Of a DNA stretch of 64,000 bases, positions 18,100 to 63,612 are shown one piece after another (position 1 is the stretch's first letter; every line of letters starts with the position of its first letter). Origin of the DNA: Candidatus Uhrbacteria bacterium (GTDB taxonomy: Bacteria > Patescibacteriota > Patescibacteriia > UBA9934 > GWF2-40-263). The position numbers were made by a program, and so were the translations under genes. Below the pieces are notes generated by a model. The model saw nothing but the letters and a program-made list of their open reading frames with translations, searched no databases and was not told the origin of the DNA. The stretch is taken from contig JACQSK010000021.1 in NCBI GenBank assembly GCA_016205975.1, forward strand, positions 106,593 to 170,592, written 5' to 3'.

Positions 18100-18189
18100 T
18101 GGAGCGGGTAGCGGGAGTCGAACCCTCTGGTAACCTCAATGATCTCCCAGGAAAGATCGCCGATTCCGCTCAACCTCGCGAAAACCCGC
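18100..18189 (-). tRNA. atypical tRNA-like element (about 90 nt, encoded CCA, discriminator U)
   Basis: Minus-strand RNA ends ...GAGGGUUCGACUCCCGCUACCCGCUCCA. 7-bp acceptor pairing of GCGGGUU with UACCCGC. Candidate anticodon hairpin GAUCU/AGAUC with an 8-nt loop. D-arm and variable region are non-canonical. Coordinates +/-2. Confidence 0.3.
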
Positions 18190-41475: not shown

Positions 41476-41628
41476 CGGGGCTCCGGAGCCGGAAGGTCTG
41501 CGCGACGGTAGCACGACGGCTCGTCGCCTTGGCCGGCGCTGGAGCCGCCCAGGCCCGGGGTCAGCCGCCCGGCGAAACACGGGCGGCGAAGCGCCCCTCG
41601 TGGACGCTGCCCGTGGTAGATTCGCCCG

Positions 41629-45100: not shown

Positions 45101-45271
45101 CACGGTTCGACCGTCGCTGTCGGAGACGAGCCCGGAGAGCGTCAGCTCGCGCCCAACCAGGCACCCGCCGCCCGAGTCCGTGATCGCGGCCTCGGGGCCT
45201 TTCAGGTAAACGGAGAGACCGGCGTCGCTGCAAGCAGTGAGCACGAGCATCGGGGAGAGTCGGCGAAGCAT
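42164..45271 (-). CDS. large lipoprotein (1035 aa) with FG-GAP/VCBS-like repeats and multiple 'putative metal-binding motif' repeats
   Basis: Lipobox LVLTAC. More than 8 DCDDxD...CDGxDNDCDG repeats. FG-GAP-like D.DGDG...G segments. The antisense ORFs are Arg-rich junk. Confidence 0.65.
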   Translation of the reverse strand: MLRRLSPMLVLTACSDAGLSVYLKGPEAAITDSGGGCLVGRELTLSGLVSDSDGRTVNDALIVTWSVYAVDADREESLDVSGPDASGVVAASWTPAYEGAYEVTLRVTDADALFADASVSFACVANHAPTSTIVRPSSTDALPEDELTWLYGHVFDEETLLDQLAVEWTSSLDGVVLSGLATESGETTDYVALSPGDHVLTLSVTDGDGESASDQVAITVGECLDEDNDGSILAGTCATGDDCDDTDPAVNPSATEVCDGTDNDCDGEVDEDDAADVPTWYTDADGDGHGDPTTPMVDCTPRADQVSIGDDCNDTDAGVSPDATETCNDVDDDCDDAVDEGLDADGDGIVDCHDAEDCDGVDNDGDGDVDEGTADADGDGTCDALDAEECDGVDNDGDGEVDEASATDAASWYADTDDDGYGAGAALTACEAPGGYVADDNDCDDADDAVYPGAEELCDGVDNDCNSSTSDGGTDADGDGYYLCDGSGEEEDCDDGDDTIHPGAEEICDGEDNNCNGEYPIGEGVDDDGDGALACECSDFDDAAACEVVADCDDGDSTVYPGATEVCDAQDNDCDGSLGTDETTDADSDGSVACEDCDDADAMRSPDFAEVCLNGVDDDCDGIVDWCSVDQVDVTIYGEDTSDHAGTGLAIGDLDDDGVLDVAIGVPGAGTNAVGEAYVYSGAPSASDTLATAEYRFEGTVTDEQIGGTLAIGDVTDDGVADLLVRAVDAVYALPGPISSGSAVGDAWILDGAGTYGSQRALSSGDVDGDGDADVLVGNEESWVAYLVDGPVGTDVDLATGSVATMSGAYTFTGMEGSNSGDVDGDGYDDILVGAYNWYAGTAGRVYLAFGPVAGSMSLDADADVIFEQSVDGDGLGMTIDCREDANGDGYDDILLGLPGVDYAASGGGAVYLVDGRARADWSTVTLASATAVIYGEESGGVGANAHLGDVSDDAVPDILFNSGNGATGNAYAFYGPLSGTFLETEADASVGGAGGLGDAADIDADGVPDILLANANESTNGTYAGAVYVIFGGF

Positions 45272-47551: not shown

Positions 47552-48751
47552 CTATCGAGGCGAGCGGTGATTTGCCGAACGCGAGATCCCCGCCTTCGCC
47601 ATCACCTCCGCCTTGTGGGCGTCGGTGGTGTGCGCGTAGATCTCGTCCAGCATGCGCCCCTCGGTCCAGCCGCCGAGCTCCATGAGCGTGCGCCGATCGA
47701 CACCGGCGATCGCGAGCCGCGTCGCCCAGGTGTGGCGGAGACCGTGCGGGTGCATCGGGGGGAGGCCCGCGCGCTTGCAGGCGCGGCGCAGCGCGATGCC
47801 GAAGTCCTGGCGGGGCCGCGTGGGCGCGGTCGGGGAGGGGAAGACCCACCCGTGGGTAGGAGCGCCGAGTGCCACGTGACGGCGCCTGAGCTCGTCGGCG
47901 AGCTCGGGCGTCATCGGGATGGCGCGGTCATGCCGGGTTTTCACCTGGAACCGGATCTCCGGCTTCGCCCGGACCAGCATCGTGCCGTGCGGACCGACGT
48001 CCCACAGCACGTCTTCCCAGCCGCGCGAGAGGATCTCTCCCTTGCGCATGCCGAGGTTCAACGCCATCAGCACCGCGAGGTACGTGAGCGGGTCGCGCGG
48101 GATCGGGGGCTTCCCTCGCGTGACGACGTGAGGCTGTTCGCGCAGCGGCCCGACGGCGTCCAGGAGTCGTTCGCACTCCTCCGTGGAGAAGAAGCGATGA
48201 GCCCGACGATCGTTGTTCTTGATCCTTGGCATCTTGGGCAGGTGCGAGAGCACGCCGCTGTCGACCGCGTGGACGAGCGCGCCGCGAAGCCAGGCCAGCT
48301 CGATGATGATCGTCTTGCTCTTGCGCCCAAGAGCCCGCCGGGCGGTGACGTACCCGTCGATCGCGACGTAGTCGAGCGCGGAGAGCACGGTGTCGCCCAG
48401 CACCGGCTTCAACGCGTTCGCCGAGGTCTGCGCGCTCGTCGCGGTCTTCGGCGCCTTGTCGCGCCGGACCACCGGCAGGTAGACCTCGTCGAGGTAGCGC
48501 GCGAGCGTGTAGCCCGCGGGCTCAGCCCTCGTCGAGGAGCCACGCTCGGTACGCGGCGGCTCCACGGACTTCCCGGTCACGAGTTTCCCCTCGAACACCG
48601 TGAGCGCGTCCTTCGCCGCGGTCCTCGGGATGAACCCGAGCCCCCGGGTGCGGGTCTTGCCCGTTCCCGGGTCGCGCCACTGGATCGCGAAGTAGGGTTC
48701 CGTCTTGCCGCTGGCGCGGTTCACGCGCTTCACCTCGGTCAGCCATGCCAT
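47552..48751 (-). CDS. int: phage-type tyrosine integrase
   Basis: N-terminal arm-binding-like MAWLTEVKRVNRASGKTEPYFAIQWRDPGTGKTRTRG. C-terminal HGLRHTWATRLAIAGV...LGGWTEGRMLDEIYAHT. Lies next to the tRNA-like site. Confidence 0.7.
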   Translation of the reverse strand: MAWLTEVKRVNRASGKTEPYFAIQWRDPGTGKTRTRGLGFIPRTAAKDALTVFEGKLVTGKSVEPPRTERGSSTRAEPAGYTLARYLDEVYLPVVRRDKAPKTATSAQTSANALKPVLGDTVLSALDYVAIDGYVTARRALGRKSKTIIIELAWLRGALVHAVDSGVLSHLPKMPRIKNNDRRAHRFFSTEECERLLDAVGPLREQPHVVTRGKPPIPRDPLTYLAVLMALNLGMRKGEILSRGWEDVLWDVGPHGTMLVRAKPEIRFQVKTRHDRAIPMTPELADELRRRHVALGAPTHGWVFPSPTAPTRPRQDFGIALRRACKRAGLPPMHPHGLRHTWATRLAIAGVDRRTLMELGGWTEGRMLDEIYAHTTDAHKAEVMAKAGISRSANHRSPR

Positions 48752-49211
48752 CGTCTCTCTCCTTCCCGGCCGCGAGCACCGCGACCAGTCGTTCCCGGTG
48801 AATGCGCCACGCCCGGCCCGCCCGGACGGCGGCGCCGTCGAGCTGCCCCTCGGCGAGCAGCCGGCGGAGCAGCCGCTCCGACACCTGGAGGTGCGCGGCC
48901 GCCTCCTCCACGCTGAGCCAGTCGGACCGGCTCTCCCCGGGAGCGTACTGCGCGGACGGTGGAGCGGGGGAGGGGGGCGAGCGCTCCGCCGGCGACCCAC
49001 CGGTCGCTCCCAGGGTCGCGAGCACGTCCCCCCACCGGTAGACGGTAGACCCCGCGATCTCCCCGGCGGGAGCGACCGTCGCGACCAGCCACGCCTGTGC
49101 GCCGGGGCCGGGGCACGGGAGCGCCTCGGCCGCCTCCTGCGCGGACAGGAGCGACGTGGGCGCGAGCGACGCGCGCCACATCCGTCGCTGGAACGCGGAG
49201 AGCGCGCTCAT
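48752..49211 (-). CDS. excisionase/HTH-like DNA-binding protein (boundaries uncertain; frame runs on into the integrase gene)
   Basis: WLSVEEAAAHLQVSERLLRRLLAEGQLDGAAVRAGRAWRIHRERL is an Xis/MerR-like HTH just upstream of int. The ORF has no stop until 48522. Confidence 0.3.
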
Positions 49212-51171
49212 CGCCGGGACGCCTCCCCGCCGCGTGAGAGGACGCACGGCCCGGTCGGCGTGGACCCGTCGCGCCGAGACTCGCGTTCTGCCCCGGTCGC
49301 CTGCGACCTGCCGCGCTCGTGCCCCCCGCCCCCCTCCCCGCTGGTCCAGGCGCCCGGGACGAGCCCGGCACGCCCGGGGTCGAAGCCCCGGAGCGTGGCG
49401 CGCCGCGCGCGTCCGTGACTCCCAGGGGAGCCGGACGAGCCGCGGAGCGCAGCACCCGGCGCAGGGCCGCCCAGGGCGGCCACTCGGCGGAGAACCGCCG
49501 AGCCGGGGAGGGGGGAGCGAGGGACAGCGAGCCGACCGGGGACCGCAGCGCGGACCGGGACGGGGAACGAGAGAACCGGCAGGGACGACCCCACGCCGAG
49601 CGGGACCGTGGCTCGGAGGAGGCCGAGGGGACGAACGGGACCTACACGGTGGACCGCAGCCTCCAGCGCGGGGGCGTACCCGGGACGCGCACGAAGACGC
49701 TCTCGTCTCGTAGCACGCCCGGTACCCACGCCTGGGGCGGGGGGAAAACCATCATGAACCGACCTTTCTCTTCGACCAGGACCCACATCGCGTCGATGAC
49801 CTCCTCGGTCGTCGCCGCGCCGTGTCCCAGGGTCTCGAGCGCCTCGGCCACGAGGTTCTTTGCCAGCATCAGTGCCATAGGGGAATGGGATTACGTCGAG
49901 GGATGGGGGTCGCCCGGCGGTTCCACGTTCCCGGGCCCAGCTGCGCTGCTGCCCATCGGCGGGCGCCGTCGCCTCGCCTCCTGCGAGAGGGAAACGCCCC
50001 CGGGGTGGGGGCGTATGGGCGCGGCTCCTTCCGCGCCCCGGTGAGTCGGGGGAACACGACCGTGACGGCGCACGAGCGCCACCGTCCGCCTCGGCCGGCC
50101 ACGACCGGCCCGCCCCGCGCCGCGGCGAGCCCGCGCCTCCCCCGGGCCACCCCCCCGCGCGCGCCGTGGACGCCGGGCCCGAGGCCCGCGCGGCGGGGAC
50201 CCGGGAGCTCGCCTCGCCCGGGGTCCCGGAGGACCACGAGCAGGAGACGAGCCGACCCGGGCGCCCCCCGGCCGCGACCCGCCGACCGCGCGGCACGTAC
50301 CCCGAGGGGGGTACCGCGAGAGCCGGCGAGCTTCGCCGAGGCACGTCGCAGGCGAGTCCAGCCGTCCCGCCCCGGGGCTGAGGCCCGGGACGAGGAGCGA
50401 CCAGGATCCGCCCGCGCGATCCGCGTCCAGGGGGACGGGGACGGGGAGGGTGGCAGGGGGATTCGACGAGCCCGCGGAGGGCCACGAGGAAGACCGGCCA
50501 GGGGACGGCCGGGCGGGGGCAGGCAACCCCTGCGCCGGCACGATCGGTCCCGGGGAGAGCATCGACACCCACGGCGACCTGCGGGCCCGCCGCGCGGCAC
50601 GCTACCCGTCGACGAGCCGCCAGTTGCCGCTGCCCTTCGCCACCGAGGCGAAGGACCGTGAGCGCTGGACGACTTGCCGAACCTTGGCCTGCCATGTCGG
50701 GGTGAGCGGGCGTCCGCGGCGCTCGCACTCGGCTTTGACCGCCGCGTACAAGACCGCAAGATGCACGCCCCGCCGAGACTGGGGCAAGGAACGGGACGCA
50801 GCCACGACGATGGGCGCCCAGCGGAGTTCCGCCGGGGCCGAGGAGGTGGAGGTTGCCATAGTGGGCTACCGCAACGACGAGACCATGACGATCGCCAGGG
50901 CGCCCGCGGTCACGACGTAGAGGACCATGAAGATCCCCTCGCGCACCCACGAGACGCGCCAGGCGCGCTTCATGTGCTTGGTCATAGGCGTGAGGATTAC
51001 GAACAAGGTGAGCAGGGGGTTGCCTGCCCCTCGCCCGGTCCGTCCCACTGGCCACGTCCGCCCCACGGCGCCCACGGGCCACCGCGATGCCGACCTCTTC
51101 CACGAGAACGAGATCACGACGGGACCGGCTCCTCCCGGCCCCCTGGTAGCTGGTGAAATGAACGCCGTAGC

Positions 51172-52128
51172 TCATGGCCGTTCCCCGGCCCTGAAAGACC
51201 CTTCCTGCACGCTCCCAGGATCCGCACCTGCACGAGATCCTGGACCCACCAGGCCGTTCCCACCGTGGGAACGGTCCGTCGGAACGGTTTCCACGAGGCA
51301 AGACGGCGCAAGGCGCGCGCGCTCGGTGCCGTCCTGGGTGACGACCCTCGGGGTGAGCCAGGCGGTCGGCGCGAGGATGTCCCGGTCGGTCAGCTCGCTG
51401 GCCACGGCGAAGGAGACGAGCCCCTCGGGAAGGCCCGCCTCCCAGGCCGCGAGCGCAAGGCGATTGCGCCTCCGGGCGGTGGGGACGGTGACGGCGACGC
51501 GCCAGTTCGAGGTACCCAGGAGCGGCGCGCCCGCGCTCCGGAGCGCGGCGTACGCGAGCGCCTTGTGCGCGAGCCAGCTCGGGGACTCGGTGCCGAGGTC
51601 CACTTCGAAGGCGACGGCGACCTGGCCGGCCCCCGCGGAGAGCAGGGCGACCGCGTCGGGCACGAGCCGAGCGTTCGGCAGCGCGCGCCGGAGTTCCCCC
51701 TCGAACAGGAAGCGTGCGAGCCGCCAGGCGCGCGAGCGACCGCACGCGACCGAGAGCGCGACGTAGAGGTCGACCTGCCCGTCGTGGTGGGCGAGGTTCA
51801 CGCGCTCGACCCCGTCGCGCACGCGGTAGTCCCCGGCCTCGCCGCCGAGGGCCGCCGCCAAGACCGGCCGCGCCGCGGGCGCGAGCGTGACGCGGTTGGG
51901 CCCGTTCAATCCCTCGGGGAGGTGCACGGTCACGAGCCCCAGGTCGCGCAGGACGCGCAGGCGCCGACGCGCCATGGGCACGCTCATCTGCACGCCGCGC
52001 GCGACCTGGTCGATGGTGACCGGCTGCGCGCGCTCGACGAGCGTGAGCACGAGGGTGTCGCGCACGGTCCGGCGCGCCCCGCCCGGGTCGCGACGCGCGG
52101 TGCGGCGGCTCGCCTCAGCGGGCATCAT
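51172..52128 (-). CDS. replication-relaxation (Replic_Relax) family protein
   Basis: N-terminal winged HTH (TLVLTLVERAQPVTIDQVARGV ... RRLRVLRDLGLV). Overall similarity to mobile-element replication-relaxation proteins, assessed from memory. Confidence 0.5.
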   Translation of the reverse strand: MMPAEASRRTARRDPGGARRTVRDTLVLTLVERAQPVTIDQVARGVQMSVPMARRRLRVLRDLGLVTVHLPEGLNGPNRVTLAPAARPVLAAALGGEAGDYRVRDGVERVNLAHHDGQVDLYVALSVACGRSRAWRLARFLFEGELRRALPNARLVPDAVALLSAGAGQVAVAFEVDLGTESPSWLAHKALAYAALRSAGAPLLGTSNWRVAVTVPTARRRNRLALAAWEAGLPEGLVSFAVASELTDRDILAPTAWLTPRVVTQDGTERARLAPSCLVETVPTDRSHGGNGLVGPGSRAGADPGSVQEGSFRAGERP

Positions 52129-52471
52129 CGCTCCCGAGGAGCTCGAAGACCGGGTTGTCGAGGGCGAGCCCGCACGGGCAGGTCACGTAGGCGGCGACGG
52201 CTCCGCACCGGGGGCAGGGACCCCACCCGGAGCCGAGGTAGGCATAGCCGCAGGCGCCGCACGTCCAGGCCGCGCCGGGGCCGAGTACGACGACGTGCCC
52301 GCGCGGGCAGCGCGCCTCGGGGGTGGAGAGCGACCGGGCCACGCGCCACGACCGCGCGAACATGACGATGGCGTCGACGAGGAGCGTGACCGGCAGCGCG
52401 GCAAGCACAAGCGCACTGAGCGCCAGGAGGACCCACCAGGGCGCGCGCACCCCGGCGAGGGCCGCGAGCAT
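52115..52471 (-). CDS. small membrane protein with C-terminal zinc-ribbon (CPRGH..CGACG..CPRCG..CPCG)
   Basis: TM helix WWVLLALSALVLAALPVTLLV then four Cys pairs. Confidence 0.4.
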   Translation of the reverse strand: MLAALAGVRAPWWVLLALSALVLAALPVTLLVDAIVMFARSWRVARSLSTPEARCPRGHVVVLGPGAAWTCGACGYAYLGSGWGPCPRCGAVAAYVTCPCGLALDNPVFELLGSDDAR

Positions 52472-52479
52472 CCCCCCGG

Positions 52480-53958
52480 TCACGGCAGCTCCAGGGCCGG
52501 CCGGCGCGAGGGACCCCGGCGTGCGCCGCTTCGCGCGGGGGCGGAGGGCCAGGGAATCGTGTTGTCTGCGACGGGAACCGCTGGCGCGGGGGGTGACGAG
52601 GTCGAGCCGTCGAACGCCTCGAGATCCTGCGCCCGCCGACCCAGCCGGCCGAGGCGGTAGCGTTCGCGCAGCTCCGCGGGGACGCGCGCGGCTTCCCGCA
52701 CCACGGCCGCGAGCGGGAGCGTACCGGTCACGAGGACCTGGCTCGTGCCGTTCACGAGGTCCGCGTAGAGCGCGGTCTGCCGGGGCAGCGCGCGCAGCCT
52801 TCGCTCCCACCGGGCGCGCGCGTCGGCGGGCGAGAGGAGCCGGTCGGGCACCTCGGGGTCCACCATCCGGGAGAGCGACTCCGGGAGCACGTGGGAGAGG
52901 AGCCGCACGTCCTCCTGCCGAGGCCGGAACGCGGTCCAGGTCGCCACGTTGACGAGCAGCGCGTCCACCAGTGCCGGGTTGCGCAGGGCACCCAGGGACT
53001 GGGTCGCCAGTTCCCAGCCCACGCCCTGCTCGCGGGAGAGCTGGAGCGCGCGCTCCAGGTCGATGCCGCTCCCCTCCGCCAGTACGTGGAACTCGTCGAG
53101 GTACACGGTGACGGGCACGTCCCGGTCCGGCCGGCTCATGACCGCCGCCAAGAGCAGCATGAGGAGAAGCGAGCCCACCATGCTGGGCAGGCCCGGGAGC
53201 CCCATCGGCGCGCCGCCCAGGTCCAGCACCGTGAGCCGGGAGCCGAGGAGCGCCTCGCCGGCGAGGCAGCCCCGGGCGTTGAACATCGCGCGCATGTCGG
53301 AGAGCGCGAGCACGTGCCGATCCAGGCGGGCCGCCAGCGCCAAGGCACTCGCCGCGGGCTCGGAGTCGAACTCGACGGACCAGTACTGGCGATCCACCGG
53401 GTCATCGATGCGCGAGACCACGGCGCGGCGGAACGTCTCGTCGGTGAGCAAGCGATGGAGCTCGACGAGGCTCCGGCTCACGCGCAGGCCGCGCATGAGC
53501 ATCCGGGACATCCGGGGGCCGAACGCCTCCCCGGCCATCTTGCCCAGGATGTCGGCGACCAGAGCCGCGCGCTCGTCGCGGGGAATCCCGGGGACCTCCG
53601 AGCAGAAGTTCAAGGGCACGGCCACGCCCTTGAAGGGCGCGAACACGGTGACGTCCGTGGGCGAGATGCCCCAGCGCGGGCCGAAGACCGGCAGCCAGTG
53701 GGCGTAGAGGTCCTCCGCGTCGTGCCCCTTGGCCGCGCCCATGATGACGACGCGCTCCCCCGCGCGCAGGCGTTGCAGGGCCTGCCCCTTCTGGTCCTGG
53801 GACTTCCCGACCCCGGTGGGACCGGTGACGAGCGCGTGCGCTCCTCTCCGGGTGGTCTCCCACAGGACCCGCCGCCCGCCCGGGGTCGAGATCCAGCCGC
53901 GCGCGCGACGGCGCGAACCGGCGCGGGCGGGCGCGAGGGGATCGCGCTCACCGGCCAT
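52480..53958 (-). CDS. P-loop ATPase of the conjugative coupling / FtsK-HerA type
   Basis: Walker A VTGPTGVGKS. Walker B-like VTVYLDEFHVL. Size and context match TraD/VirD4/TraG-like or FtsK-like DNA translocases. Confidence 0.55.
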   Translation of the reverse strand: MAGERDPLAPARAGSRRRARGWISTPGGRRVLWETTRRGAHALVTGPTGVGKSQDQKGQALQRLRAGERVVIMGAAKGHDAEDLYAHWLPVFGPRWGISPTDVTVFAPFKGVAVPLNFCSEVPGIPRDERAALVADILGKMAGEAFGPRMSRMLMRGLRVSRSLVELHRLLTDETFRRAVVSRIDDPVDRQYWSVEFDSEPAASALALAARLDRHVLALSDMRAMFNARGCLAGEALLGSRLTVLDLGGAPMGLPGLPSMVGSLLLMLLLAAVMSRPDRDVPVTVYLDEFHVLAEGSGIDLERALQLSREQGVGWELATQSLGALRNPALVDALLVNVATWTAFRPRQEDVRLLSHVLPESLSRMVDPEVPDRLLSPADARARWERRLRALPRQTALYADLVNGTSQVLVTGTLPLAAVVREAARVPAELRERYRLGRLGRRAQDLEAFDGSTSSPPAPAVPVADNTIPWPSAPARSGARRGPSRRPALELP

Positions 53959-54541
53959 CGTCGTCGTCCCCTTCGCCGAGCAGGTGGAAGTCGTCGTCGT
54001 CGCCTCCCGCGCGCGGCGCCTCGCCGGCGGCCTCGTCCATGGCGGGCTCGTCGTCCCCGGGCTCGACGACCCGGGCGCGGCGACGGGCGGTGGGACGCGG
54101 CGCCGGCCGCGGGGAAGGCAGCGCGGCGCGCGCCTTGGCCGCGACGAGGAGCACCGCGGCGGCGGCGAGCATGAGCCCGGCGAGCATGGCGCAGGTCTCG
54201 GCGTCGTAGAGCACCCCGTCGAGACCCGTGTCCGCGGACGGAGCGCCGACGCGGACGCCCCCGAGGCGCGCGCGCACGCCCGCGAGCGCAGAGATGGCGA
54301 GGGGCCAGCCCCCGGCGAAGAGCGCGAGCCCGATCGCCCACGGGAGGATGCGCCCGGAAAGCTGGGTCGCGCCCACCATCCAGGTGACGCACAGCCCGAG
54401 CACGGCGAGCACGAGCAGGCCCGCGGCCAGGTGATGGAGCGGCACGGCGAACAGCGCCGCGCCGACGGCGAGCACGACGAGCACCGCCACTCCGGCGCGG
54501 CCGGCGCGATCGTGCTGGCGCAGCGGGCGGGGCGTTGTCAC
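53948..54541 (-). CDS. membrane protein (4 TM) with acidic C-terminal tail
   Basis: GTG start overlapping the upstream stop. TM helices. Tail DDDDFHLLGEGDDDDGR. Confidence 0.35.
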   Translation of the reverse strand: MTTPRPLRQHDRAGRAGVAVLVVLAVGAALFAVPLHHLAAGLLVLAVLGLCVTWMVGATQLSGRILPWAIGLALFAGGWPLAISALAGVRARLGGVRVGAPSADTGLDGVLYDAETCAMLAGLMLAAAAVLLVAAKARAALPSPRPAPRPTARRRARVVEPGDDEPAMDEAAGEAPRAGGDDDDFHLLGEGDDDDGR

Positions 54542-54897
54542 GGCCACGGCTCCGGGCACTCGAGCATGCGGCGGTATGCCCACGGAGTGTCGGCGGACGC
54601 GCAGATCTCCTCCTTGTCCAGGCCGGGGTTGCGCTCGCGCTCCGCCGCGACCGCTCGTCGCGCCGCGCGCTCCGCGATGGCCTCGACTTCCTCCACCGAG
54701 GGCCCGGGGACGTAGGACACGACCGTCGGCGCGGGCGGGTCCGCCGCCTTGGCGCGCGCCACGACGACGGATCCGGCCTGTCCGGGCGCGGCCTCCCGCG
54801 CACAACCCGTTCGCACGAGGAGTATGCCCGCGATGCCGGCGGCGATCGCGCCCAGGGAGAGGAGGGTGAGGGCGTCAACGAGACGGCGAAGGTCCAT
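54538..54897 (-). CDS. small TM protein
   Basis: MDLRRLVDALTLLSLGAIAAGIAGILLV. Translationally coupled to its neighbours. Confidence 0.35.
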   Translation of the reverse strand: MDLRRLVDALTLLSLGAIAAGIAGILLVRTGCAREAAPGQAGSVVVARAKAADPPAPTVVSYVPGPSVEEVEAIAERAARRAVAAERERNPGLDKEEICASADTPWAYRRMLECPEPWP

Positions 54898-55504
54898 GGT
54901 GGCCTCCGGGGGAGCGAGGAAGCACGAAGAACGGGACGGGGGCGTCGAGCGCGGAGAAACCGTCGGACTCGACGGGCTGGAGCACGCCGGAGCGGGGGCC
55001 GAGGTACGCCCCCGTGCCCTGGCCGATGGGCAGGCTGGGGTCGATGACAACTCCTACGGAGCTGGCTGCGGGGAACGTGGCCTGGGTCGCCTCGTCGGTA
55101 CGGGAGAAGCGGGTGCCGTAGCCAGGGTGGGTGTGCCACCAGCCGACGACCTCGGCGATGGGCCAGCCCCACCGGAGATCCTCCATGAGCGCGGCCATCT
55201 CCTCGACGCCCGCGAAGACGTGGGCGTGGCCGGCGTCGGCGCGCACGGCGCGCACCGCGCCGGTGACCAGGGTGTAGGGGCCGTCTGCGTCCTCGCACGC
55301 CCGCCCGGCGAGGAGTCCCATCGTCTCGCGCGGCACGGCCGCCCGCGCCCAGGCGACCAGGTCGTCCAGGACGGCCTCCGACAGGTAGACGGCGACTCCC
55401 AGCGCGTCGCCGAACCGCGACCAGCCGGGCTCCTCCGGGGCAGGCGCGGGCCGGTAGAGAGGAACGCATTCGCGCACCCCGCGGACCACGAGGCGGGTGC
55501 TCAT
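54875..55504 (-). CDS. JAB/MPN (JAMM) metallopeptidase-domain protein
   Basis: WWHTHPGYGTRFSRTDE matches H-x-H-x7-S-x2-D. Upstream Glu (RETMGLLAG). Start overlaps the E2 stop (ATGA). Confidence 0.6.
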   Translation of the reverse strand: MSTRLVVRGVRECVPLYRPAPAPEEPGWSRFGDALGVAVYLSEAVLDDLVAWARAAVPRETMGLLAGRACEDADGPYTLVTGAVRAVRADAGHAHVFAGVEEMAALMEDLRWGWPIAEVVGWWHTHPGYGTRFSRTDEATQATFPAASSVGVVIDPSLPIGQGTGAYLGPRSGVLQPVESDGFSALDAPVPFFVLPRSPGGHHGPSPSR

Positions 55505-56148
55505 GCGCGCCCCCGGACGCGCAGGCGCGGCGAGGGGGTGGGCGGCCAGGGCGAGAGCACCCGCAGCGCGGGCCGCGACCGGGCCACGCCGTGAGTGAAC
55601 TCGACCGGCATCGCCGGGTAGACGAGGTCGCGGTGCAAGGAGTGCCCGCGCAGCGTCTCCTGCCAGTAGCGGATGGCGTCGGGCTGGTAGCCCCAGTCGC
55701 TGTCCGAGTACGGCTCGTCGAAGTTGAGGATGCGCGCCACCTGCACGAGCAGGTGGGCAAGCAGGACCTGCCCGCCGGCGTCGCCCCAGTCCGAGCCGAT
55801 GCACACCACCCCCGAGGCCGGCTGGACACGGTGGTTCCACGGCAAGGGCGGCAGGACGGTGACCGCGGGGGGCGTGAACGGGTAGTTGCCGCCCGCGAGC
55901 AGGTCGAAGGCGACCACCGTCGCCGCCTGGTACCGGCCGGGCCCCGCGAGCGTCCGGAAGTCGTACCGTGCCAAGACGTAGGGGGGCGCGGCCCCGGGCG
56001 TGCCGGGAGCGACGGGATCGCGTGCCGAGAGCAGGGCCGGGATGCTCGCGAACCCTGCGACCTGCAACCACGGGGCGGCGAGCCGCGCCACGACCTCGAA
56101 GTCGAAGCGCAGCCGGCGCTCCCGCTCTCCTGGCGCGAGGCGTCGCAT
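55501..56148 (-). CDS. E2-like (UBC-fold) ubiquitin-conjugating enzyme homologue
   Basis: PLPWNHRVQPASGVVCIGSDWG resembles the UBC active-site HPN(I/V)xxxGxICL stretch. Start overlaps the Ubl stop (TGATG). Confidence 0.5.
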   Translation of the reverse strand: MRRLAPGERERRLRFDFEVVARLAAPWLQVAGFASIPALLSARDPVAPGTPGAAPPYVLARYDFRTLAGPGRYQAATVVAFDLLAGGNYPFTPPAVTVLPPLPWNHRVQPASGVVCIGSDWGDAGGQVLLAHLLVQVARILNFDEPYSDSDWGYQPDAIRYWQETLRGHSLHRDLVYPAMPVEFTHGVARSRPALRVLSPWPPTPSPRLRVRGRA

Positions 56149-56408
56149 CAGCGGGCGCCCTCCATGGCCTGGACCACCTCGACGACGTCCCCGTCGGCCA
56201 CGCCCGCGGCACGCAAGGTGCGACCCGGGAGGATCGGGAGGTGTGTGCGGCCGTGGACCAGGCCGTACTCCCGCCGGTCGGTGACGGGCAAGAGCGCGTC
56301 GCAGCGGACCAGCTCGTGGATGGTCTCCAGGGCGGTCAGCTCGGGGTCGACGTCGACGTCGAGCGCGGAAGGGGTGCGGGGACAGGCGAACTTGACGTTC
56401 ATGGTCAT
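56148..56408 (-). CDS. small beta-grasp (ubiquitin-like) protein, 86 aa, C-terminus ...VVQAMEGAR (no terminal Gly-Gly)
   Basis: GAGGAGGA RBS. ATG overlaps the E1 stop (ATGA). ...GRTLRAAGVADGDVVEVV resembles ThiS/MoaD C-terminal strands. Confidence 0.45.
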   Translation of the reverse strand: MTMNVKFACPRTPSALDVDVDPELTALETIHELVRCDALLPVTDRREYGLVHGRTHLPILPGRTLRAAGVADGDVVEVVQAMEGAR

Positions 56409-57667
56409 TCCTCCTCGGAATGGGGGGTGAGAGAGAGGCGGGGAAAGACGCCGGGGACCGTGCCCGGGAGCTGCACGAGCGCACCGTCGGCACGGGCGAC
56501 CGCGCCCGGTCCCAGCCCGAGCCGGGGAAGCGGCACGTCCAGGAGCACGGCGTCCGAGGCCCGGAGAACCGAGCGGAGGTCGGGGAGGCCGGGCGCACTC
56601 CCCGGCGAGCACGAGTCTCCCGGGCACCGGGGCGCGGAGGTGACCGCGTACCGCGGCTGGTTCACGACCACGGGCCGCCCGCACCCCGCGCACGGGAGCG
56701 ACACGACGACCGGCTCGGACAGCTGGATCTCGCTGCAGGGGAGCCCCAGCCGCCGCAGCGCCTCGAACAGCTCGTACAGCGTCGCGGGCTCCCCGGGGAC
56801 GCGCGCCGCTTCCTCGCCGAAGGGGACGTGGTCGAGCCGGCAGTCCGGGTCGCTCACGAGCGTCGTGAGCACCGACCGCCCCGTGCGGATGTCGAGGTGC
56901 CAACGATGGCCGGCGAGCGGCACGTACCGGGGCAACAGCGCCGGGTCGGTCTCGAACCCGTCCGAGAGCAGGTGCGCGTGCGCGAACCCGATCGCCGCCT
57001 CGGCGACGAGCGCGCCGGCGACCTGGGCCGCGGACTGGATGGCCGGGGAGAAGCCGGCCGCCTCCGCCTGCCTGGCGTAGAGCGTGCACAGCCCGCGGGT
57101 GCTCGCGTCCCGGAGGGAGCGCCGGCCGCAGCCCCAGCACGGCTCGTCCGGGATCCCGGGGTGGTTCGCGATGACCGTGACCGCGAGCTGGGGGCCCTCG
57201 AACCCCGCCTCGACGAGCGGCAGCCGGGAGCGCCGGCACAGCTCGGAGAGGTACGCGCGCGTCTCGTTGCTGTCGACCGCGGAGATGAGCGCGTGCGGGT
57301 ACCACGGGCCCCGTGCGCCCGCGAGCAGGTCCCCGACCGCCTGCACCAGGCCCAGGTGGTGGTACGCCTCGGCGCCAGGGTGGGTCGCGGACCGCAAAAA
57401 ACCCTCGGCGACGGCCGGGGCCTTGGGGGCGTCCTTCTGGTAGAAGGGGCTCCGGGTGCGGTTGGACTCCTCGAAGGCGTCGGGGTCGACGACGATGAGC
57501 GTGCGGACGCCGGAGAGCGCGAGCGCGAGCGCGGCGTTCTGGCCGAGCGCACCGGCGCCCACCAGCGCGACCCGGGTGCCCGAGAGCACGTGCGGGTCGT
57601 ACCCGGCGAGCCGCTCGCGGGAGAGGAAAGAGGGATCAGTGACGGTGGCCGTCATTGGGCCCTCCAC
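56405..57667 (-). CDS. E1-like ThiF/MoeB-family adenylyltransferase with C-terminal Cys-rich (CxxC...C..C) region
   Basis: RVALVGAGALGQNAALALALSGVRTLIVVDPDAFEESN is a ThiF fold. C-terminal SLPCAGCGRPVV ... PRCPGDSCSPG. Confidence 0.65.
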   Translation of the reverse strand: MEGPMTATVTDPSFLSRERLAGYDPHVLSGTRVALVGAGALGQNAALALALSGVRTLIVVDPDAFEESNRTRSPFYQKDAPKAPAVAEGFLRSATHPGAEAYHHLGLVQAVGDLLAGARGPWYPHALISAVDSNETRAYLSELCRRSRLPLVEAGFEGPQLAVTVIANHPGIPDEPCWGCGRRSLRDASTRGLCTLYARQAEAAGFSPAIQSAAQVAGALVAEAAIGFAHAHLLSDGFETDPALLPRYVPLAGHRWHLDIRTGRSVLTTLVSDPDCRLDHVPFGEEAARVPGEPATLYELFEALRRLGLPCSEIQLSEPVVVSLPCAGCGRPVVVNQPRYAVTSAPRCPGDSCSPGSAPGLPDLRSVLRASDAVLLDVPLPRLGLGPGAVARADGALVQLPGTVPGVFPRLSLTPHSEEE

Positions 57668-58466
57668 AGGTCCAGCAGGTGGGGCCGGCCTCCACCCGCT
57701 CCCGCGAAACGACGAGCGGCGCGGCCGAGTGGGTTGCCGGCGGTGCGGCCGCGCGGGCGGTCGGCGTCGACGCTCTTCTCTCCGCGCGCGCGGGAGATCG
57801 CGCGGCCCAGTGCGGGGCCAAGCGCGGGGTTGGCGGTGCGGTTGGAGGGGTGGCCGACGGGGCCGCCTGGCGGGTGGCCGGCCTCGGGGCCGAGGAGGTG
57901 GCCGGCGTCGACACCCCTCGCTCTTCGCGCTCGGGAGTACCGCGCGGGGGCGAGAAGGCGCGGGCGGCCCACGCCTCCACTTCGCGCGTAAGCCACGCCT
58001 GCGCGGCGTTCAGGCCGTCGGCCGCCCCGGTGACGATCCACCGGGCGAGCAGGACGAGGAGGCCGAGGCCGCCGAGCGTCACGATGATCGGGTCGACGCC
58101 GGCGGACGGCGCCCAGCGGGTCCATGCCTCGTGGACCGCGGCGACCAGCACGCAGAGGCCGACCCGGCGGAGGAGCGCACGGAGGCCGGGAGGGAAGGCG
58201 CGGTACCGCTCCACGACGTGATCGAGGAGCTTCCCGGCCTCGCCGGCGACGACGAGCAGCAGGAAGCCGACCGGGACGGTGACGGCGAAAAGGGCGGCGG
58301 CCTCGATCGCCGCCTGCAAGTACGCGATGGGCGCGGCGGAGCCGGGGCAGCCCGGGAGGACCAGGAGCAACGGGGCGACGGCGCCGAGGCGAACCAGCCA
58401 TCCCGCGACGTCCAGGTCGCAAGGCGACCGGCCCCGGCGCCATGCGCGATCGCAGCCGGTGGTCAT
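57636..58466 (-). CDS. membrane protein with Pro/Ala/Thr-rich C-terminal tail
   Basis: Several TM helices. The stop overlaps the next gene. Confidence 0.35.
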   Translation of the reverse strand: MTTGCDRAWRRGRSPCDLDVAGWLVRLGAVAPLLLVLPGCPGSAAPIAYLQAAIEAAALFAVTVPVGFLLLVVAGEAGKLLDHVVERYRAFPPGLRALLRRVGLCVLVAAVHEAWTRWAPSAGVDPIIVTLGGLGLLVLLARWIVTGAADGLNAAQAWLTREVEAWAARAFSPPRGTPEREERGVSTPATSSAPRPATRQAAPSATPPTAPPTPRLAPHWAARSPARAERRASTPTARAAAPPATHSAAPLVVSRERVEAGPTCWTCGGPNDGHRH

Positions 58467-58739: not shown

Positions 58740-59891
58740 ATGCCCATTCGCAAGCCCGGCGCCGGCCCCTCCTCGCGGATCCCGCGCCGCAAGGTGCTGG
58801 AGGCCGCGCGTCGATTCTACCTGCACGGGGAGACCCAGACCGCGATCGCCGCGGACCTCGGGGTCTCGAACTCCTACTTGGCGCGGCTCTTGAAGGACGC
58901 GCGCGAGCAGGGCTGGGTGAAGATCATCGTGGACAGCGACCGGGAGACGGAACTCGCGGCGGCGCTCATGGCCAAGTACCCCCACCTCGTCCACTGCGAG
59001 GTGGTGCCGACCGGGAGTACGCCCGAGGACACGGCGCGGGCGATCGGGACGGCGATGGCGAACTGGTTCGACGAGTTGCTCGACCGGGACGAGGAGTCCG
59101 CCGACCCACAGGTTCGCAAGGTGGCGATCGGAGGCGCGTGGCCCCACCAGTTCATGGTCGACGCCGTGGTGCGCCGGCGGAACCGGGTCTCGGTCGGGCC
59201 CACCGCGCTCACGCCGTCACCGGCGAGGATGGACCGGTACACCGCCCCGGTGGTGGCCGCGAAGCTCGCGGACCGCCTGGGGGCGCTCGGGGCGGGCTCG
59301 GCCACGCCGCCGGGAAGCTCGCGGACCGGCTTCCTCTACTCCCCGACGTTCAAGCCGCCCCGCGACAGCTTGCCGGCGCTCCAACGGTTCTTCGAGGACA
59401 TCAAAAAAGACCCGGACTACCGGGCCATGCTGGACTTCTGGATGGACGTGGACGTGGCGTTCCTGAGCGTGGTCGCGCCGCAGTGGCGGTACTCGGACGT
59501 GCACGACCGGCTCTCGGCGCTAGGGCTCTCCACGCAGAATCTCATCGACCGCGGCGCGACGGCCGTGGTGGCGAACCGGTTCCTGGACGGCAACGGCCGA
59601 GACGTCCCGCTTGCCGAGGGAGTGCCGTCCTACGAGGTGGCGATGCCGACCGAGGCGATCCGGGCGGTGATGGAACGGCACGCCGCGAGCGGGGGGAGGC
59701 GCGGGTTCGTGGTGCTGGATGCTTGGGGGGAGCCTGGTGTCGGCGGGCGGACACTCTTGCAGGCGGGCGTAGTGAACATCCTGCTCTGCGATGCATCAAC
59801 GGGGGTTCAAATCGCTTCACCGCCGAGACCTGAGCACGTCCAAGCGCGGCCGTCTCCATCTACTCAATCTGATCTACCCCGTCGTCCCTAA
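58740..59891 (+). CDS. SorC/DeoR-like transcriptional regulator (N-terminal HTH + sugar-binding-like domain)
   Basis: TQTAIAADLGVSNSYLARLLKDAREQGWVKI is an HTH. Divergent from the E1/E2/JAB operon. C-terminal extent uncertain. Confidence 0.5.
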   Translation: MPIRKPGAGPSSRIPRRKVLEAARRFYLHGETQTAIAADLGVSNSYLARLLKDAREQGWVKIIVDSDRETELAAALMAKYPHLVHCEVVPTGSTPEDTARAIGTAMANWFDELLDRDEESADPQVRKVAIGGAWPHQFMVDAVVRRRNRVSVGPTALTPSPARMDRYTAPVVAAKLADRLGALGAGSATPPGSSRTGFLYSPTFKPPRDSLPALQRFFEDIKKDPDYRAMLDFWMDVDVAFLSVVAPQWRYSDVHDRLSALGLSTQNLIDRGATAVVANRFLDGNGRDVPLAEGVPSYEVAMPTEAIRAVMERHAASGGRRGFVVLDAWGEPGVGGRTLLQAGVVNILLCDASTGVQIASPPRPEHVQARPSPSTQSDLPRRP

Positions 59892-61676: not shown

Positions 61677-62102
61677 CTACGCCCCTCGCAGGTACTCCAC
61701 GATGTCGTGTGCTCGGGCCTCGTAGAACGAAGCAGGCTGCCCCGGATTCACGCGCACCGTGAAGACAGAGAACCCTTGCCTCTCCAACGCGGTTATGAGG
61801 GGCGTGTAGAGCGACCCCGGCTCCTCTGGCGGGCGCGCTGCGCAGACCAAGTAGGTGAAGTGCCCGTACCGAGCGATGAAGGCATCAGTACTGGCTACGC
61901 GCCTCTCCTCAAGCGTCTGCGAGAGAACGGCACCGTTGGGAACTCGCTCTTCCAGCGATTGCGAGAGCACGGCGCCCGTCCGCGCATCGAGCAGAAACCG
62001 CCGAGCGCGCGATGAAATCCGCAGCAATGGCTTCAGGAACTCCCTAAGCGTCCTGCTTTTCCCAGAGTGGTGGGGGCCCACCACGATGGCCGCTCGCTTC
62101 AT
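61677..62102 (-). CDS. small P-loop NTPase-like protein
   Basis: Walker A GPHHSGKS. Internal duplication VLSQSLEERV / VLSQTLEERR. GAGGAG RBS. Confidence 0.4.
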   Translation of the reverse strand: MKRAAIVVGPHHSGKSRTLREFLKPLLRISSRARRFLLDARTGAVLSQSLEERVPNGAVLSQTLEERRVASTDAFIARYGHFTYLVCAARPPEEPGSLYTPLITALERQGFSVFTVRVNPGQPASFYEARAHDIVEYLRGA

Positions 62103-62541
62103 GGGTCTCGCTCCTCGCTCTCGCATCTTGGTGTCCGTATCATGGCCGGCCGCGCAGCACGCCCGCCGTCTCCCACATGGCGTCACTCGGGGCGACAAGG
62201 CGACGCGCGGGCTCATTCAGGTGGGCGTCCTCCTCCGCCTTTCGGTGCTCGACCACGTTGTCATCGCCAGCGACACCTATGCGTCTCTGGCGGCGAGCGT
62301 CATGGACGAGGCGCCGTACCCGGTGCTCGGGGTGGCGTGAACTCAGACCTCTCCGTCTCGGTAGAGGTTTTTCATTTCCAGAGTCTCGGCAGGCGCTCAT
62401 CGCGCGCGCTCCTCTCGAAGCTTCGCAGGACACGCTCGGTCGTCTGGAGGCCGCCATGATCGTGAAGCTCCCATCCAGCGTCGTGTCCTACGGCCTCCCG
62501 ACTACCAAGCGCACACCGCGACGGCAGGGCTCGCGCTCCTG

Positions 62542-63612
62542 CTATCGTCCCCGAAAAGCGTCCCCGTCCTCGTCGAAGTACTCGGTCTCCTCGTCGTCCT
62601 CGTCCTCACCCCCGTCGTCGTCGAGATCGAGGAACTCGTGGATCAGGTACATCTTGAGGCGACCGGAGCGACTCTGGAGTTCCGATCCGAAGAAGGACAC
62701 CTCAACACGCGGGCCCTTCGGGTCGGTCGCGAACCGTTGCAGGCTCGCGGCGACCTGGGCGATTTCGTTGCTCCCGCGGGCCTTCTCGTCGATCACGAAT
62801 GGGATCGGTCGCTGCTTGCCTGGAACGTAGACCCGGCCCTTGAATGTATTGGCGTTGTAGCTGGTGATCACTCCGTCATCCACGCGGATCCCGTCTACGC
62901 GATTCGTGTGCTGGAGGTACTCGGCGGTCGCGGCGGTCAACTCCTGACCGATCAGGAGTTGTTGTCCTTCCACCTGCGCGAGGAGTCGAGCCCGCTCGGC
63001 GGTCCCGGTCTCGAAGATCGGCCTGTGGACGTTCAGCACCGCCACCTCGACCTTCTCGGCGATGCTGTCGATCTGGGCGTCCCGGAGGACATGGGGCATC
63101 GCCGTGTCGGGAAGCCCGGCGTCACGCAGCTTCTGCTTGTATTCCTGGTAGCTCGCCAACAGCGGCTTTTCATAGTCCACGTCGAAGCCGAGGGTCGTCT
63201 TGATCACGGCGTGGTAGGCGGAGAAGAGGACGTGGCCGAGCGGGTTGTCCCTCCCCGTTGTGGTGAGCGCGAACGCCGCGCCCACGACCCCCGCAGTCCC
63301 GGTGCCGACGAGTCCCAGCACGGCCACCACCAGCTCCCAACTCCCCGGAGTCGGCGGTCGAGCGCGGATCGAGGCTCCTTTCAAGGCTGGAGCCTGCGTG
63401 ATGATTTCCCCGTTGAGGACGGCGTGTGTGGTGATGGCGAGGGTCCGGTGGAGCCCCTGCATCGCGACGGACACGTCGTAGAGGTCGAGTTCCTGTCGGG
63501 AGGCGTCGGCCCCGTCGAAGCTCAACTTCAACCATAGGAGCGGGCGGTTCGACTGTATGATTGCCACGGCGCGACTCCTCAGATCAGATGCCACGCGACG
63601 TAGCAGGGTCAC
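62542..63612 (-). CDS. hypothetical protein with poly-acidic C-terminal tail
   Basis: 356-aa ORF ending DDDGGEDEDDEETEYFDEDGD. Confidence 0.4.
   Translation of the reverse strand: MTLLRRVASDLRSRAVAIIQSNRPLLWLKLSFDGADASRQELDLYDVSVAMQGLHRTLAITTHAVLNGEIITQAPALKGASIRARPPTPGSWELVVAVLGLVGTGTAGVVGAAFALTTTGRDNPLGHVLFSAYHAVIKTTLGFDVDYEKPLLASYQEYKQKLRDAGLPDTAMPHVLRDAQIDSIAEKVEVAVLNVHRPIFETGTAERARLLAQVEGQQLLIGQELTAATAEYLQHTNRVDGIRVDDGVITSYNANTFKGRVYVPGKQRPIPFVIDEKARGSNEIAQVAASLQRFATDPKGPRVEVSFFGSELQSRSGRLKMYLIHEFLDLDDDGGEDEDDEETEYFDEDGDAFRGR

Follow-up and report, generated by a model that had tools for sequence, protein, structure and literature searches.

This study concerns a ubiquitin-like protein (Ubl) conjugation cassette in a stretch of 64,000 nucleotides (nt) of contig JACQSK010000021.1 (assembly GCA_016205975.1, positions 106,593 to 170,592), deposited as Candidatus Uhrbacteria bacterium; the whole stretch is referred to as the window. 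Four consecutive minus-strand genes between positions 54875 and 57667 encode an activating enzyme (E1; 56405..57667; 420 amino acids (aa) from the GTG at 57667, or 416 aa from the ATG at 57655), a beta-grasp Ubl (56148..56408; 86 aa, or 84 aa from the ATG at 56402), a UBC-fold conjugating enzyme (E2; 55501..56148; 215 aa), and a JAMM/MPN+ metallopeptidase (JAB; 54875..55504; 209 aa). The E1 matches Pfam ThiF (3.3e-20) and the JAB matches Pfam Prok-JAB (3.9e-11) and JAB (2.7e-07); the Ubl was assigned with AlphaFold2 and Foldseek, and the E2 with a family alignment and an AlphaFold2 model. A preliminary description of the window had named these genes as a full E1-Ubl-E2-JAB cassette with overlaps of 1-4 nt, and both the gene structure and the identity of the four products hold.

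Around the operon the GC content is ~75% and long spurious open reading frames (ORFs) are abundant, and the coding frames were picked by the GC content at the third codon position (GC3). The GC3 peaks (0.9-1.0) track exactly the four minus-strand frames named earlier. At the junction of the E1 stop and the Ubl start the sequence reads ...GAGGAGGAATGACCATG, which is an ATGA overlap of 4 nt if the Ubl starts at 56408; the alternative ATG at 56402 has a better Shine-Dalgarno spacing and is the start of the public gene call (84 aa). The Ubl stop and the E2 start overlap by 1 nt (TGATG), and the E2 stop and the JAB start by 4 nt (ATGA). The cassette is part of a longer series of eleven minus-strand genes, from 58636 down to 51172, which are joined by overlapping or abutting start and stop codons in the order 57-aa acidic ORF, three-helix membrane protein, E1, Ubl, E2, JAB, single-pass membrane protein, membrane protein with three to four transmembrane helices, P-loop ATPase, zinc-binding membrane protein, and Replic_Relax protein. 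The same E1-Ubl-E2-JAB string recurs in all of the ~45 independent public loci with sufficient sequence; therefore, it is not a chance pattern of ORFs. Overall, the four genes are confirmed as a real, complete, and translationally coupled bacterial Ubl-conjugation operon.

For the comparison, 58 loci were fetched (designated by L-numbers), and the core was judged in those with enough sequence. The E1-Ubl-E2-JAB core is constant over the fetched loci, while the module that comes after the JAB differs. The closest relative, L014, has an E2 that is 59% identical to that of the window and the same gene string, and homology between the two spans ~48996-58306 of the window. An exhaustive profile search with the E2 retrieved 234 cluster representatives from 1.84 billion proteins, all of them from metagenome-assembled genomes (MAGs) or metagenomes, and the genome matches of the family are MAGs without exception (10/10). 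A tblastn search with the E2 found no match in 72,556 plasmids or in 50,697 phage genomes; the E2 family therefore does not occur on these sequenced plasmids or phages. The family is rare and comes so far from uncultured bacteria.

No hidden Markov model (HMM) of Pfam, NCBIfam, or PADLOC matches the E2 or the Ubl at threshold, and the evidence for their fold and family therefore comes from alignments and structural models. In an alignment of 33 E2 relatives from the database search, the family motif is GGNYPFxxPxVxVxSxPxPWxPHVHPxxGxVCxG, in which Cys116 is invariant, and the LNFDE motif (N142, D144, and E145) is invariant as well. All 43 matches of the E2 profile to the PDB at E<=10 are UBC-fold E2s (best 0.0035), and the alignments run along YPF..P...G.(I/V)C and pair the catalytic Cys residues. 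The AlphaFold2 model (predicted local distance difference test, pLDDT, 90.3) adopts the UBC fold and places the catalytic Cys in the loop that follows beta-4, and the top 50 Foldseek matches are all E2s with a probability of 1.00. The UBC-like fold expected for this gene is thus borne out. Pfam UQ_con matches 10 of the 33 members below threshold (best 1.4e-03), and the window protein only at 0.26. The Pfam families Prok-E2_A to E, Prok_Ub, Multiubiq, and Prok-RING, which reportedly derive from the Burroughs et al. 2011 catalogue, do not match the family, a Prok-E2 match being found in just one of the 33 E2s. In fold and motif, the E2 is closer to eukaryotic UBC enzymes than are BilB and BubB, the E2s of the Bil and Bub systems discussed below.

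The JAMM site of the JAB is intact, with E60 and H123-T-H125-x7-S133-xx-D136, the latter being the HTHx7SxxD motif that had already been read from the sequence. Prok-JAB scores 43.3 bits against a cut-off of 25, and the best matches among PDB sequences are Rpn11 (4.4e-11), CSN5 (~1e-08), and the Caldiarchaeum Rpn11-like protein (8e-07). The JAB is predicted to be the enzyme that matures the Ubl and removes it from its targets.

The AlphaFold2 model of the Ubl (pLDDT 81.9) has the order beta-beta-alpha-beta-beta with a flexible tail. Its top Foldseek matches are ubiquitin, SUMO, NEDD8, Caldiarchaeum ubiquitin, and the Ubl domain of EccD5, with template modelling (TM) scores of 0.7-0.8; identity to ubiquitin and Caldiarchaeum ubiquitin is 24-26% at a TM score of ~0.7 (Foldseek). 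No Ubl was retrieved when the Ubl profiles were searched against PDB sequences. Among Pfam families, only YukD recurs in searches with the Ubls, in 27 of 54 members (best 9.5e-05); each of these matches is below threshold, and the window Ubl itself scores 22 bits against a cut-off of 27. A match of BurrH to the Ubl profile (5e-05) was rejected as a summed-repeat artefact; the TALE-like repeats of this protein end 'GGAQ'.

The window Ubl ends M-E-G84-A85-R86. This end had been considered unusual because it is not Gly-Gly, and it was taken to imply either that the JAB exposes a reactive terminus or that the chemistry is non-canonical. C-termini were compared among 69 database relatives and the Ubls encoded between the E1 and E2 genes of the related loci. 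Gly-Ala followed by an unconserved tail of 0-14 residues was found in ~64 of the 69 Ubls, with Gly84 near-invariant and Ala85 invariant. The tail is absent in 12 relatives, which end exactly in Gly-Ala, and the others have ends such as GAR, GAGR, GAAR, GAGVDR, and GARQWTD. The MEGAR end fits this rule: G84-A85 is the C-terminal dipeptide of the family and R86 is a variable tail. In addition, the best 150 E2 relatives include ~20 proteins in which a Ubl is fused to the E2 and two of the form Ubl-Ubl-E2, the junctions read [GA]-A, and the fusion operons preserve the order E1, fusion, JAB. The double fusions, P0157 and P0164, have a layout like that of a polyubiquitin precursor, with each Ubl ending in G-A. 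Because such fusions occur in relatives, a peptidase must free the Ubl, and the conserved dipeptide, the variable tails, and the fusions strongly imply maturation by the JAB, as the first of the two proposals had it.

Precedents are known in both Bil and Bub. BilA of Ensifer aridi ends in Gly97-Ala98, and BilC removes Ala98 and exposes the reactive Gly before adenylation (bioRxiv 10.1101/2023.09.26.559546); among bacterial Ubls, an end without Gly-Gly is thus nothing unusual. In Citrobacter, the cut that BubCD makes in the BubAB fusion falls after a conserved Gly (PMC11601596). By analogy with Bil, Gly84 would be favoured as the activated residue. Three observations speak for Ala85 being retained instead: it is invariant, the 12 tailless relatives stop at it, and in the model the Gly-Ala lies in the same four-residue register after beta-5 as Gly75-Gly76 of ubiquitin.

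The E1 family alignment contains 13 sequences of 416-426 aa, in which the adenylation motifs are kept. A zinc motif is formed by a PCWRC knuckle (C177xxC180) and its DPxC275xxxH279 partner, and Cys194, in the crossover loop 14 residues past the CxxC, is kept in 12 of the 13 sequences. The C-terminus carries a four-Cys zinc ribbon (C323xxC326 ... C348 ... C353), in agreement with the ThiF-type E1 with a Cys-rich C-terminus of the preliminary description, and is followed by a terminal domain of ~60 residues to which no fold was assigned. When the C-terminal 141 residues were compared with the Ubl profile, as a test for a beta-grasp resembling the ubiquitin-fold domain (UFD) of E1 enzymes, no signal was obtained. 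Among PDB sequences, the E1 profile matches E. coli MoeB best (2.7e-19), followed by UBA7 (1.4e-18), SAE2 (1.2e-16), and UBA6; BubCD scores just 2.6e-04, and neither BilD nor Cap2 is among the top 60 matches. The alignment with MoeB pairs E1 residues 13-255 with MoeB residues 18-246 and places Cys194 opposite the crossover-loop Cys of MoeB. Judged from its sequence, the E1 is a minimal enzyme of MoeB size with one adenylation domain rather than a canonical multidomain E1, and it keeps a Cys at the position that E1 enzymes use.

It might be asked whether the E1 and the Ubl form a sulfur-carrier pair or a pair for cofactor or peptide biosynthesis, of the MoeB-MoaD or ThiF-ThiS type, as suggested by MoeB being the best solved match of the adenylation domain and by the minimal architecture, which has no CYS domain. 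The NCBIfam MoeB/ThiF scores of the E1 (27-43 bits), however, are far under the equivalog cut-offs of 152-449 (for instance 42.7 vs 275 and 34.7 vs 449), and the scanned operon products and flanking ORFs included no rhodanese, MoaE, ThiG, or sulfurtransferase. Moreover, the E1 is accompanied in every locus by an Rpn11-like JAB and by an E2 that has the UBC fold and an invariant Cys, and the Ubl lacks a Gly-Gly end and in many relatives forms one protein with the E2. A biosynthetic pair of this kind is hardly credible. Of the earlier expectation that the E1 would have a catalytic Cys and stand apart from MoeB and ThiF enzymes, the conserved Cys194 and the distance from the equivalog families stand, whereas the nearest solved relative is MoeB itself.

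A working scheme for the cascade can be potentially described as follows. The JAMM peptidase would trim the Ubl precursor at Gly84-Ala85, removing R86 or A85-R86 from the window protein, and in relatives it would release the Ubl from the Ubl-E2 and Ubl-Ubl-E2 fusions. The MoeB-like E1, probably a homodimer, would adenylate the exposed C-terminus and then form a thioester on Cys194, from which the Ubl would be handed to Cys116 of the UBC-fold E2. The E2 may then pass the Ubl to lysines of its targets, either directly or aided by the membrane-anchored zinc-ribbon protein of the operon as a speculative adaptor, since no RING or HECT E3 is recognisable. The JAB may also be able to reverse the modification.

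The genes around the cassette connect it with mobile elements. The first large gene of the operon (57636..58466, -), found by the GC3 frame plot and a hydropathy scan, encodes a membrane protein of 276 aa with ~3 transmembrane helices; its 3' end overlaps the start of the E1 gene, a homologue lies at the same position in L014, and the family HMM search gave no match to it. Frame plot and hydropathy also define the two membrane proteins after the JAB. The first is a small single-pass protein (119 aa; 54538..54897, -) whose gene overlaps the 3' end of the JAB gene by 23 nt; it has a homologue in L014, and a small protein with three transmembrane helices is found at the same place in other loci that carry the ATPase. 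The second (197 aa; 53948..54541, -) has 3-4 transmembrane helices and an acidic C-terminal tail, and its homologue in L014 is 59% identical.

Next in the operon is a P-loop ATPase of the FtsK/HerA superfamily (492 aa; 52480..53958, -) with Walker A GPTGVGKS and Walker B YLDEFH. It gives weak matches to TrwB, TraD, and PADLOC mad8, and its relatives match DUF87, FtsK_SpoIIIE, TrwB_AAD_bind, and TraG-D_C, the TrwB and TraG matches being below threshold. The hydropathy scan detected no N-terminal transmembrane anchor in the window protein. The ATPase is a candidate coupling or translocation ATPase. It is followed by a membrane-anchored zinc-binding protein (122 aa; 52115..52483, -) with the ligands CxxxH ... 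CxxC ... CxxC ... Cx(1-2)C, which is conserved in L001, L002, L004, L006, L008, L014, L017, and L034. The window protein belongs to no Pfam or NCBIfam family; it probably contains two zinc ribbons, and any function as an E3 or as an adaptor for substrates would be conjectural. The last gene of the operon (51172..52128, -) encodes a Replic_Relax protein (Pfam 1.1e-13, 52.2 bits vs a cut-off of 25.3) that retains the motifs PDA ... EVDLGTE ... K, which are invariant in the alignment of its family. Replic_Relax is the MOB_C relaxase family, with a winged helix-turn-helix (HTH) and a nuclease of the PD-(D/E)xK fold (PMC5357655, PMC3424549). Downstream of the operon lies a tyrosine recombinase (integrase) gene (47552..49000, -; Phage_integrase 9.8e-25), for which the public gene call is 399 aa (47552-48751), and L014 has an integrase at the same relative position.

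The flanking membrane proteins, P-loop ATPase, and Replic_Relax protein of the preliminary description were all found, and the cassette is in one transcription unit with mobilisation genes of an integrated element of the integrative mobilizable type. Since it is co-transcribed with the ATPase and the MOB_C relaxase and lies beside an integrase, the cassette would ride on, and may possibly be wired into, this element. The integrative/conjugative type assigned to the module earlier is supported as far as the integrase, the relaxase, and the FtsK/HerA-type ATPase go; as for conjugation, neither type IV secretion system genes nor a VirB4-like gene turned up in the Pfam scans of operon products and flanking ORFs, and no origin of transfer was identified at the element, so that 'mobilizable' is the safer term. 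Divergent from the operon is a gene for a 383-aa protein with an N-terminal HTH (HTH_28, 1.4e-04; 58740-59891, +), which could be a regulator and is not conserved in the other loci.

The ATPase also bears on an explanation in which the Ubl is not conjugated at all and is a structural or assembly factor like YukD or the Ubl domain of EccD, with the E1, E2, and JAB being vestigial or otherwise used. Against the PDB, the ATPase family profile matches EccC, the ATPase of type VII secretion (T7SS), best (5.5e-09), followed by HerA (1.4e-05) and FtsK (7e-04); this agrees with the EccD5 domain among the structural matches of the Ubl, with the recurrent YukD signal, and with the membrane proteins that surround the cassette. 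The YukD matches are nevertheless sub-threshold, and scans of the operon and flanking ORFs against Pfam and NCBIfam detected no WXG100 and no EssB/EccB-type genes. The catalytic residues of E1, E2, and JAB and the Gly-Ala end of the Ubl are conserved across phyla, which argues for active conjugation. A non-conjugated Ubl is therefore highly improbable.

Another question is whether the cascade works by itself or as one unit with its neighbours. In the latter case, conjugation of the Ubl would switch a mobilisation or translocation machine made of the membrane proteins, the ATPase, the zinc-ribbon protein, and the MOB_C relaxase on or off; in a variant, a defence system would have the ATPase and the nuclease as its effectors, and Ubl conjugation would set this system off or hold it back. 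The unbroken series of eleven coupled genes would suit such a unit. In at least 13 distinct loci, from Myxococcota-like MAGs and metagenomes, the JAB is followed by a small membrane protein and the ATPase, in this order, although the ATPases are only 25-28% identical to that of the window, and the zinc-ribbon protein and MOB_C lie near the ATPase in most of these loci. In L014 the ATPase and the relaxase (79%) are better conserved with respect to the window than the Ubl enzymes (58-64%). Even the exchange of the module in another clade, where a DUF4407 membrane protein takes the place right after the JAB, is what swappable effector modules would show. The same clade also provides an objection, since at least nine distinct loci (Acidobacteriota-like) have DUF4407 and neither the ATPase nor MOB_C, and a few loci with the core cassette have neither ATPase nor DUF4407. 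Because the core occurs in these loci, the cascade does not need the ATPase or MOB_C. MOB_C also varies in position and strand (L001, L003, L018, L032, and L050), and a Ubl is not known to be employed by any system of conjugation or mobilisation. Taken jointly, the two versions of a single unit are possible but on the whole unlikely. Still less probable is the wider proposal in which Ubl modification gates the translocation of DNA or protein through the ATPase and MOB_C, the Ubl is a conjugatable relative of YukD/EccD, and the lineage is nearer to the eukaryotic core than Bil and Bub are.

The DUF4407 protein has ~440 aa (L016, 11855-13171) and equivalents in L005, L009, L025, L026, L030, L041, L043, and L044; it has no PADLOC match, and the papers found on DUF4407 show no evident link to Ubl or conflict systems. 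Some relatives vary in the cassette itself. L044 has a second copy of the E2 (15502-16575) ~5 kb downstream on the opposite strand, and an extra ORF with a Ubl domain is present in L004, L006, L009, and L044. In L008 (CAVWUP010000007.1), E2 residues ~33-192 (9980-10780) are encoded opposite to the E1, the Ubl, the first ~30 E2 codons, the JAB, the ATPase, the zinc-binding membrane protein, and MOB_C. This arrangement is either an inversion of ~650 bp inside the gene or an assembly artefact, and no convincing inverted repeats flank the inverted segment.

As for the role of the cascade, analogy with Bil, the mobility of the cassette, and the neighbourhoods of its relatives make genetic conflict the most likely one, in which the cascade would defend against phages or plasmids or be of advantage to the element itself. 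The neighbours of relatives include a type III CBASS (cyclic oligonucleotide-based antiphage signalling system; L017), CHAT, caspase, and TIR genes (L016), and a NACHT protein (L018). In the reading preferred here, the locus encodes a complete and probably active Ubl cascade of an apparently undescribed family, located on a mobile element and likely with a role in conflict; a probability of roughly 0.7 is given to this statement as a whole. The enzymology of the cascade appears highly probable, while an autonomous role in genetic conflict, which is argued by analogy, has about an even chance.

Several observations weigh against this reading. The steps of the cascade are all drawn from homology, in a family known from sequences and models. 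MoeB, the best solved match of the E1, also bears a Cys at the position of Cys194, so that the presence of this residue is no proof of thioester chemistry; the crossover-loop Cys is dispensable for MoeB. Classical E2s have an HPN motif, which this family has not kept: its His and Asn positions vary, and the window E2 reads NHRVQP. No E3 was found, as no Prok-RING or other RING model of Pfam or NCBIfam matches the operon products, and the defence models of PADLOC and NCBIfam yielded no match to the E2 or to the Ubl, so that the defence role rests on context. A search for direct repeats of the attachment-site type at ~45-61 kb returned just low-complexity, GC-rich chance pairs, and the boundaries of the element were not located.

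A second Ubl system lies at 13424-17498 (+) of the window and comprises a 388-aa protein without family, a JAB-like protein, a short E1, a Ubl, and a 375-aa protein without family. The JAB-like protein has GHSHx7SxxD and matches Prok-JAB at just 3e-04; the E1 (284 aa) matches ThiF (1.9e-15) and the PADLOC Cap2-type E1-E2 models (4e-13); and the Ubl (97 aa) ends ...VEGG. The region has ~60% GC, and no E2 was recognised between 13424 and 17498. The two systems, at 13.4-17.5 kb and 55-57 kb, show no sequence relationship, in line with the earlier remark that the window holds two distinct Ubl systems. Just downstream of the 13.4-17.5 kb system is the only tRNA gene of the window, tRNA-Arg (anticodon GCG; 18100-18189, -), which could be an integration target.

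Two further gene pairs lie in the window. A 624-aa protein (39706-41580, -) has a C-terminal caspase domain (Peptidase_C14, 9.4e-29), and adjoining it is a 1035-aa protein (42164-45271, -) that has MopE metal-binding, FG-GAP, and PKD repeats. In relatives, too, caspase and CHAT genes are found near the Ubl cassette. Just past a drop in GC content at ~59-60 kb, a protein with DUF7946 and DUF7947 (62542-63612, -; 2e-27 and 1.6e-10) and a small AAA_16-like P-loop protein (61677-62216, -) may be another conflict-type gene pair.

The taxonomic name of the contig deserves a comment. Proteins identical to the E2 and the Ubl of the window are deposited as 'Candidatus Uhrbacteria bacterium' (P0001 and P0225; HY631_04510 and HY631_04515), and the genome relatives are all from MAGs of Myxococcota, Acidobacteriota, or Chloroflexota. 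GC content is 73-76% in the cassette region and ranges from 58% to 76% in the whole window. This casts doubt on the bin assignment of the contig, which may alternatively be a mosaic.

Among the known bacterial systems, Type II BilABCD (formerly CEHH or 6C; Ensifer aridi TW10) resembles the cassette most in its way of working. Both have four separate proteins (Ubl, E2, JAB, and E1) and no E3, a Ubl with a single beta-grasp and a conserved Gly before a short unconserved tail, and a location in mobile elements or defence islands. The Type II Bil Ubl has a conserved Gly with up to ~9 residues that the JAB removes, compared with Gly-Ala and 0-14 residues here, a likeness in the sequence pattern, and the Ala after the Gly is invariant in the present family, unlike in Bil. 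The E1 of Bil is composed of an inactive and an active adenylation domain (IAD-AAD) with an alpha-helical CYS insertion, whereas the E1 of the window combines one MoeB-like adenylation domain, which has its Cys in a short crossover loop, with a zinc ribbon towards the C-terminus. Neither the E2 nor the Ubl has detectable homology to BilB or BilA of E. aridi (hhalign probability 0.1), and a BLASTP match of the E1 to E. aridi BilD is limited to the GxGxxG nucleotide-binding loop. The gene order also differs: it is Ubl-E2-JAB-E1 in Bil and E1-Ubl-E2-JAB in the window and nearly all relatives, L040 alone having the Bil-like order.

Type I and II Bub (formerly 6E or DUF6527) share with the cassette a minimal E1 of the homodimer type, Ubl-E2 fusions (here in relatives) that would need a cut by the JAB behind a conserved small residue, and forms with several Ubls. 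The Bub E1 and E2 have no catalytic Cys and use oxyester chemistry, they are fused (JAB-E1 in BubCD or E2-E1 in BubBD), and they always occur with the DUF6527 serine protease BubE (PMC11601596). In contrast, the E1, E2, and JAB of the window are separate, Cys116 of the E2 is invariant, and Cys194 of the E1 is kept in 12/13 sequences; DUF6527 was found neither in the operon products scanned against Pfam nor in the public gene calls of L011, L014, L016, L017, and L018. Type II CBASS (Cap2/Cap3) and 6A-MBL are characterised by an E2-E1(-JAB) fusion, a partner that is a cGAS/DncV-like nucleotidyltransferase (CD-NTase) or a metallo-beta-lactamase (MBL), and the absence of a Ubl. The window operon has a Ubl and unfused enzymes, with no SMODS or MBL gene, and the PADLOC 'E1-E2' and NCBIfam 6A-MBL models match just the nucleotide-binding region of the E1 or the JAB domain, well under their cut-offs. 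The family is distinct from Bil, Bub/6E, and CBASS-Cap2/3; it works like Type II Bil and is not a member of it. The label 'Bil/Bub/6E-like' of the preliminary description thus applies to the way of working and not to membership.

The MOB_C mobilisation modules are alike in having an HTH and PD-(D/E)xK relaxase beside an ATPase similar to FtsK, TcpA, or VirD4 and a tyrosine integrase. CloDF13, for example, pairs its MobC relaxase with its own coupling protein MobB. The ATPase of the window differs in that its best scores are with EccC, HerA, and FtsK and not with coupling proteins of the VirD4 type, and in that it has no N-terminal transmembrane anchor. The literature yielded no MOB_C module with a Ubl cascade inside it and no link between Replic_Relax and ubiquitin. 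With YukD/EccD and EccC of T7SS, the locus shares a Ubl with a YukD signal near an FtsK/EccC-like ATPase and multi-pass membrane proteins. According to a published report (PMC1779556), YukD does not undergo conjugation, and it lacks partners of the E1, E2, or JAB kind, whereas a full conjugation cascade is present here and no substrates or core components of T7SS were found.

The eukaryote-like tri-ligase prokaryotic ubiquitin systems (Burroughs et al. 2011, summarised in PMC7159879 and PMC3417536) consist of E1, E2, a RING E3, JAB, and ubiquitin. In the window no RING model matches an operon product, and a conserved membrane-anchored protein with eight zinc ligands is present. The eukaryotic core system and the operon of Caldiarchaeum subterraneum are the nearest in components: the E2 is closest to canonical UBC E2s, the JAB to Rpn11 and CSN5, and the Ubl model resembles ubiquitin. 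In Caldiarchaeum the Ubl precursor is trimmed by an Rpn11-type peptidase, as is predicted for the window, the subject named in the titles of PDB entries 6FNO and 6FNN. Unlike in these systems, no RING E3 is recognised, HPN is not conserved, the Ubl has Gly-Ala rather than Gly-Gly, and the E1 is of MoeB size with no UFD or CYS domain recognisable by sequence. By sequence and structure, the E2, JAB, and Ubl are nearest to components of the canonical eukaryotic or Caldiarchaeum type, though sub-threshold for curated families.

No earlier description of the family was found in the literature; Burroughs et al. (2011, 2012) may mention it. The finding is of specialist interest and would not overturn current views unless a coupling to the translocation or mobilisation machinery proves functional. 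The fixed placement of the cassette by membrane proteins and by the ATPase and relaxase, or by DUF4407, raises the question of whether mobile elements use protein tagging for defence or for the control of transfer. CBASS-Cap2/3, Bil, and Bub were shown only recently to conjugate proteins, each with a diverged E1 and E2. To these the family would add an architecture with a MoeB-sized E1 carrying a crossover-loop Cys, a near-eukaryotic E2, an Rpn11-like peptidase, and a tag that is tailed or fused to the E2. It may thus offer a compact model of how a minimal E1 hands a Ubl to an E2 of the canonical type, and it may help to trace how the eukaryotic system arose.

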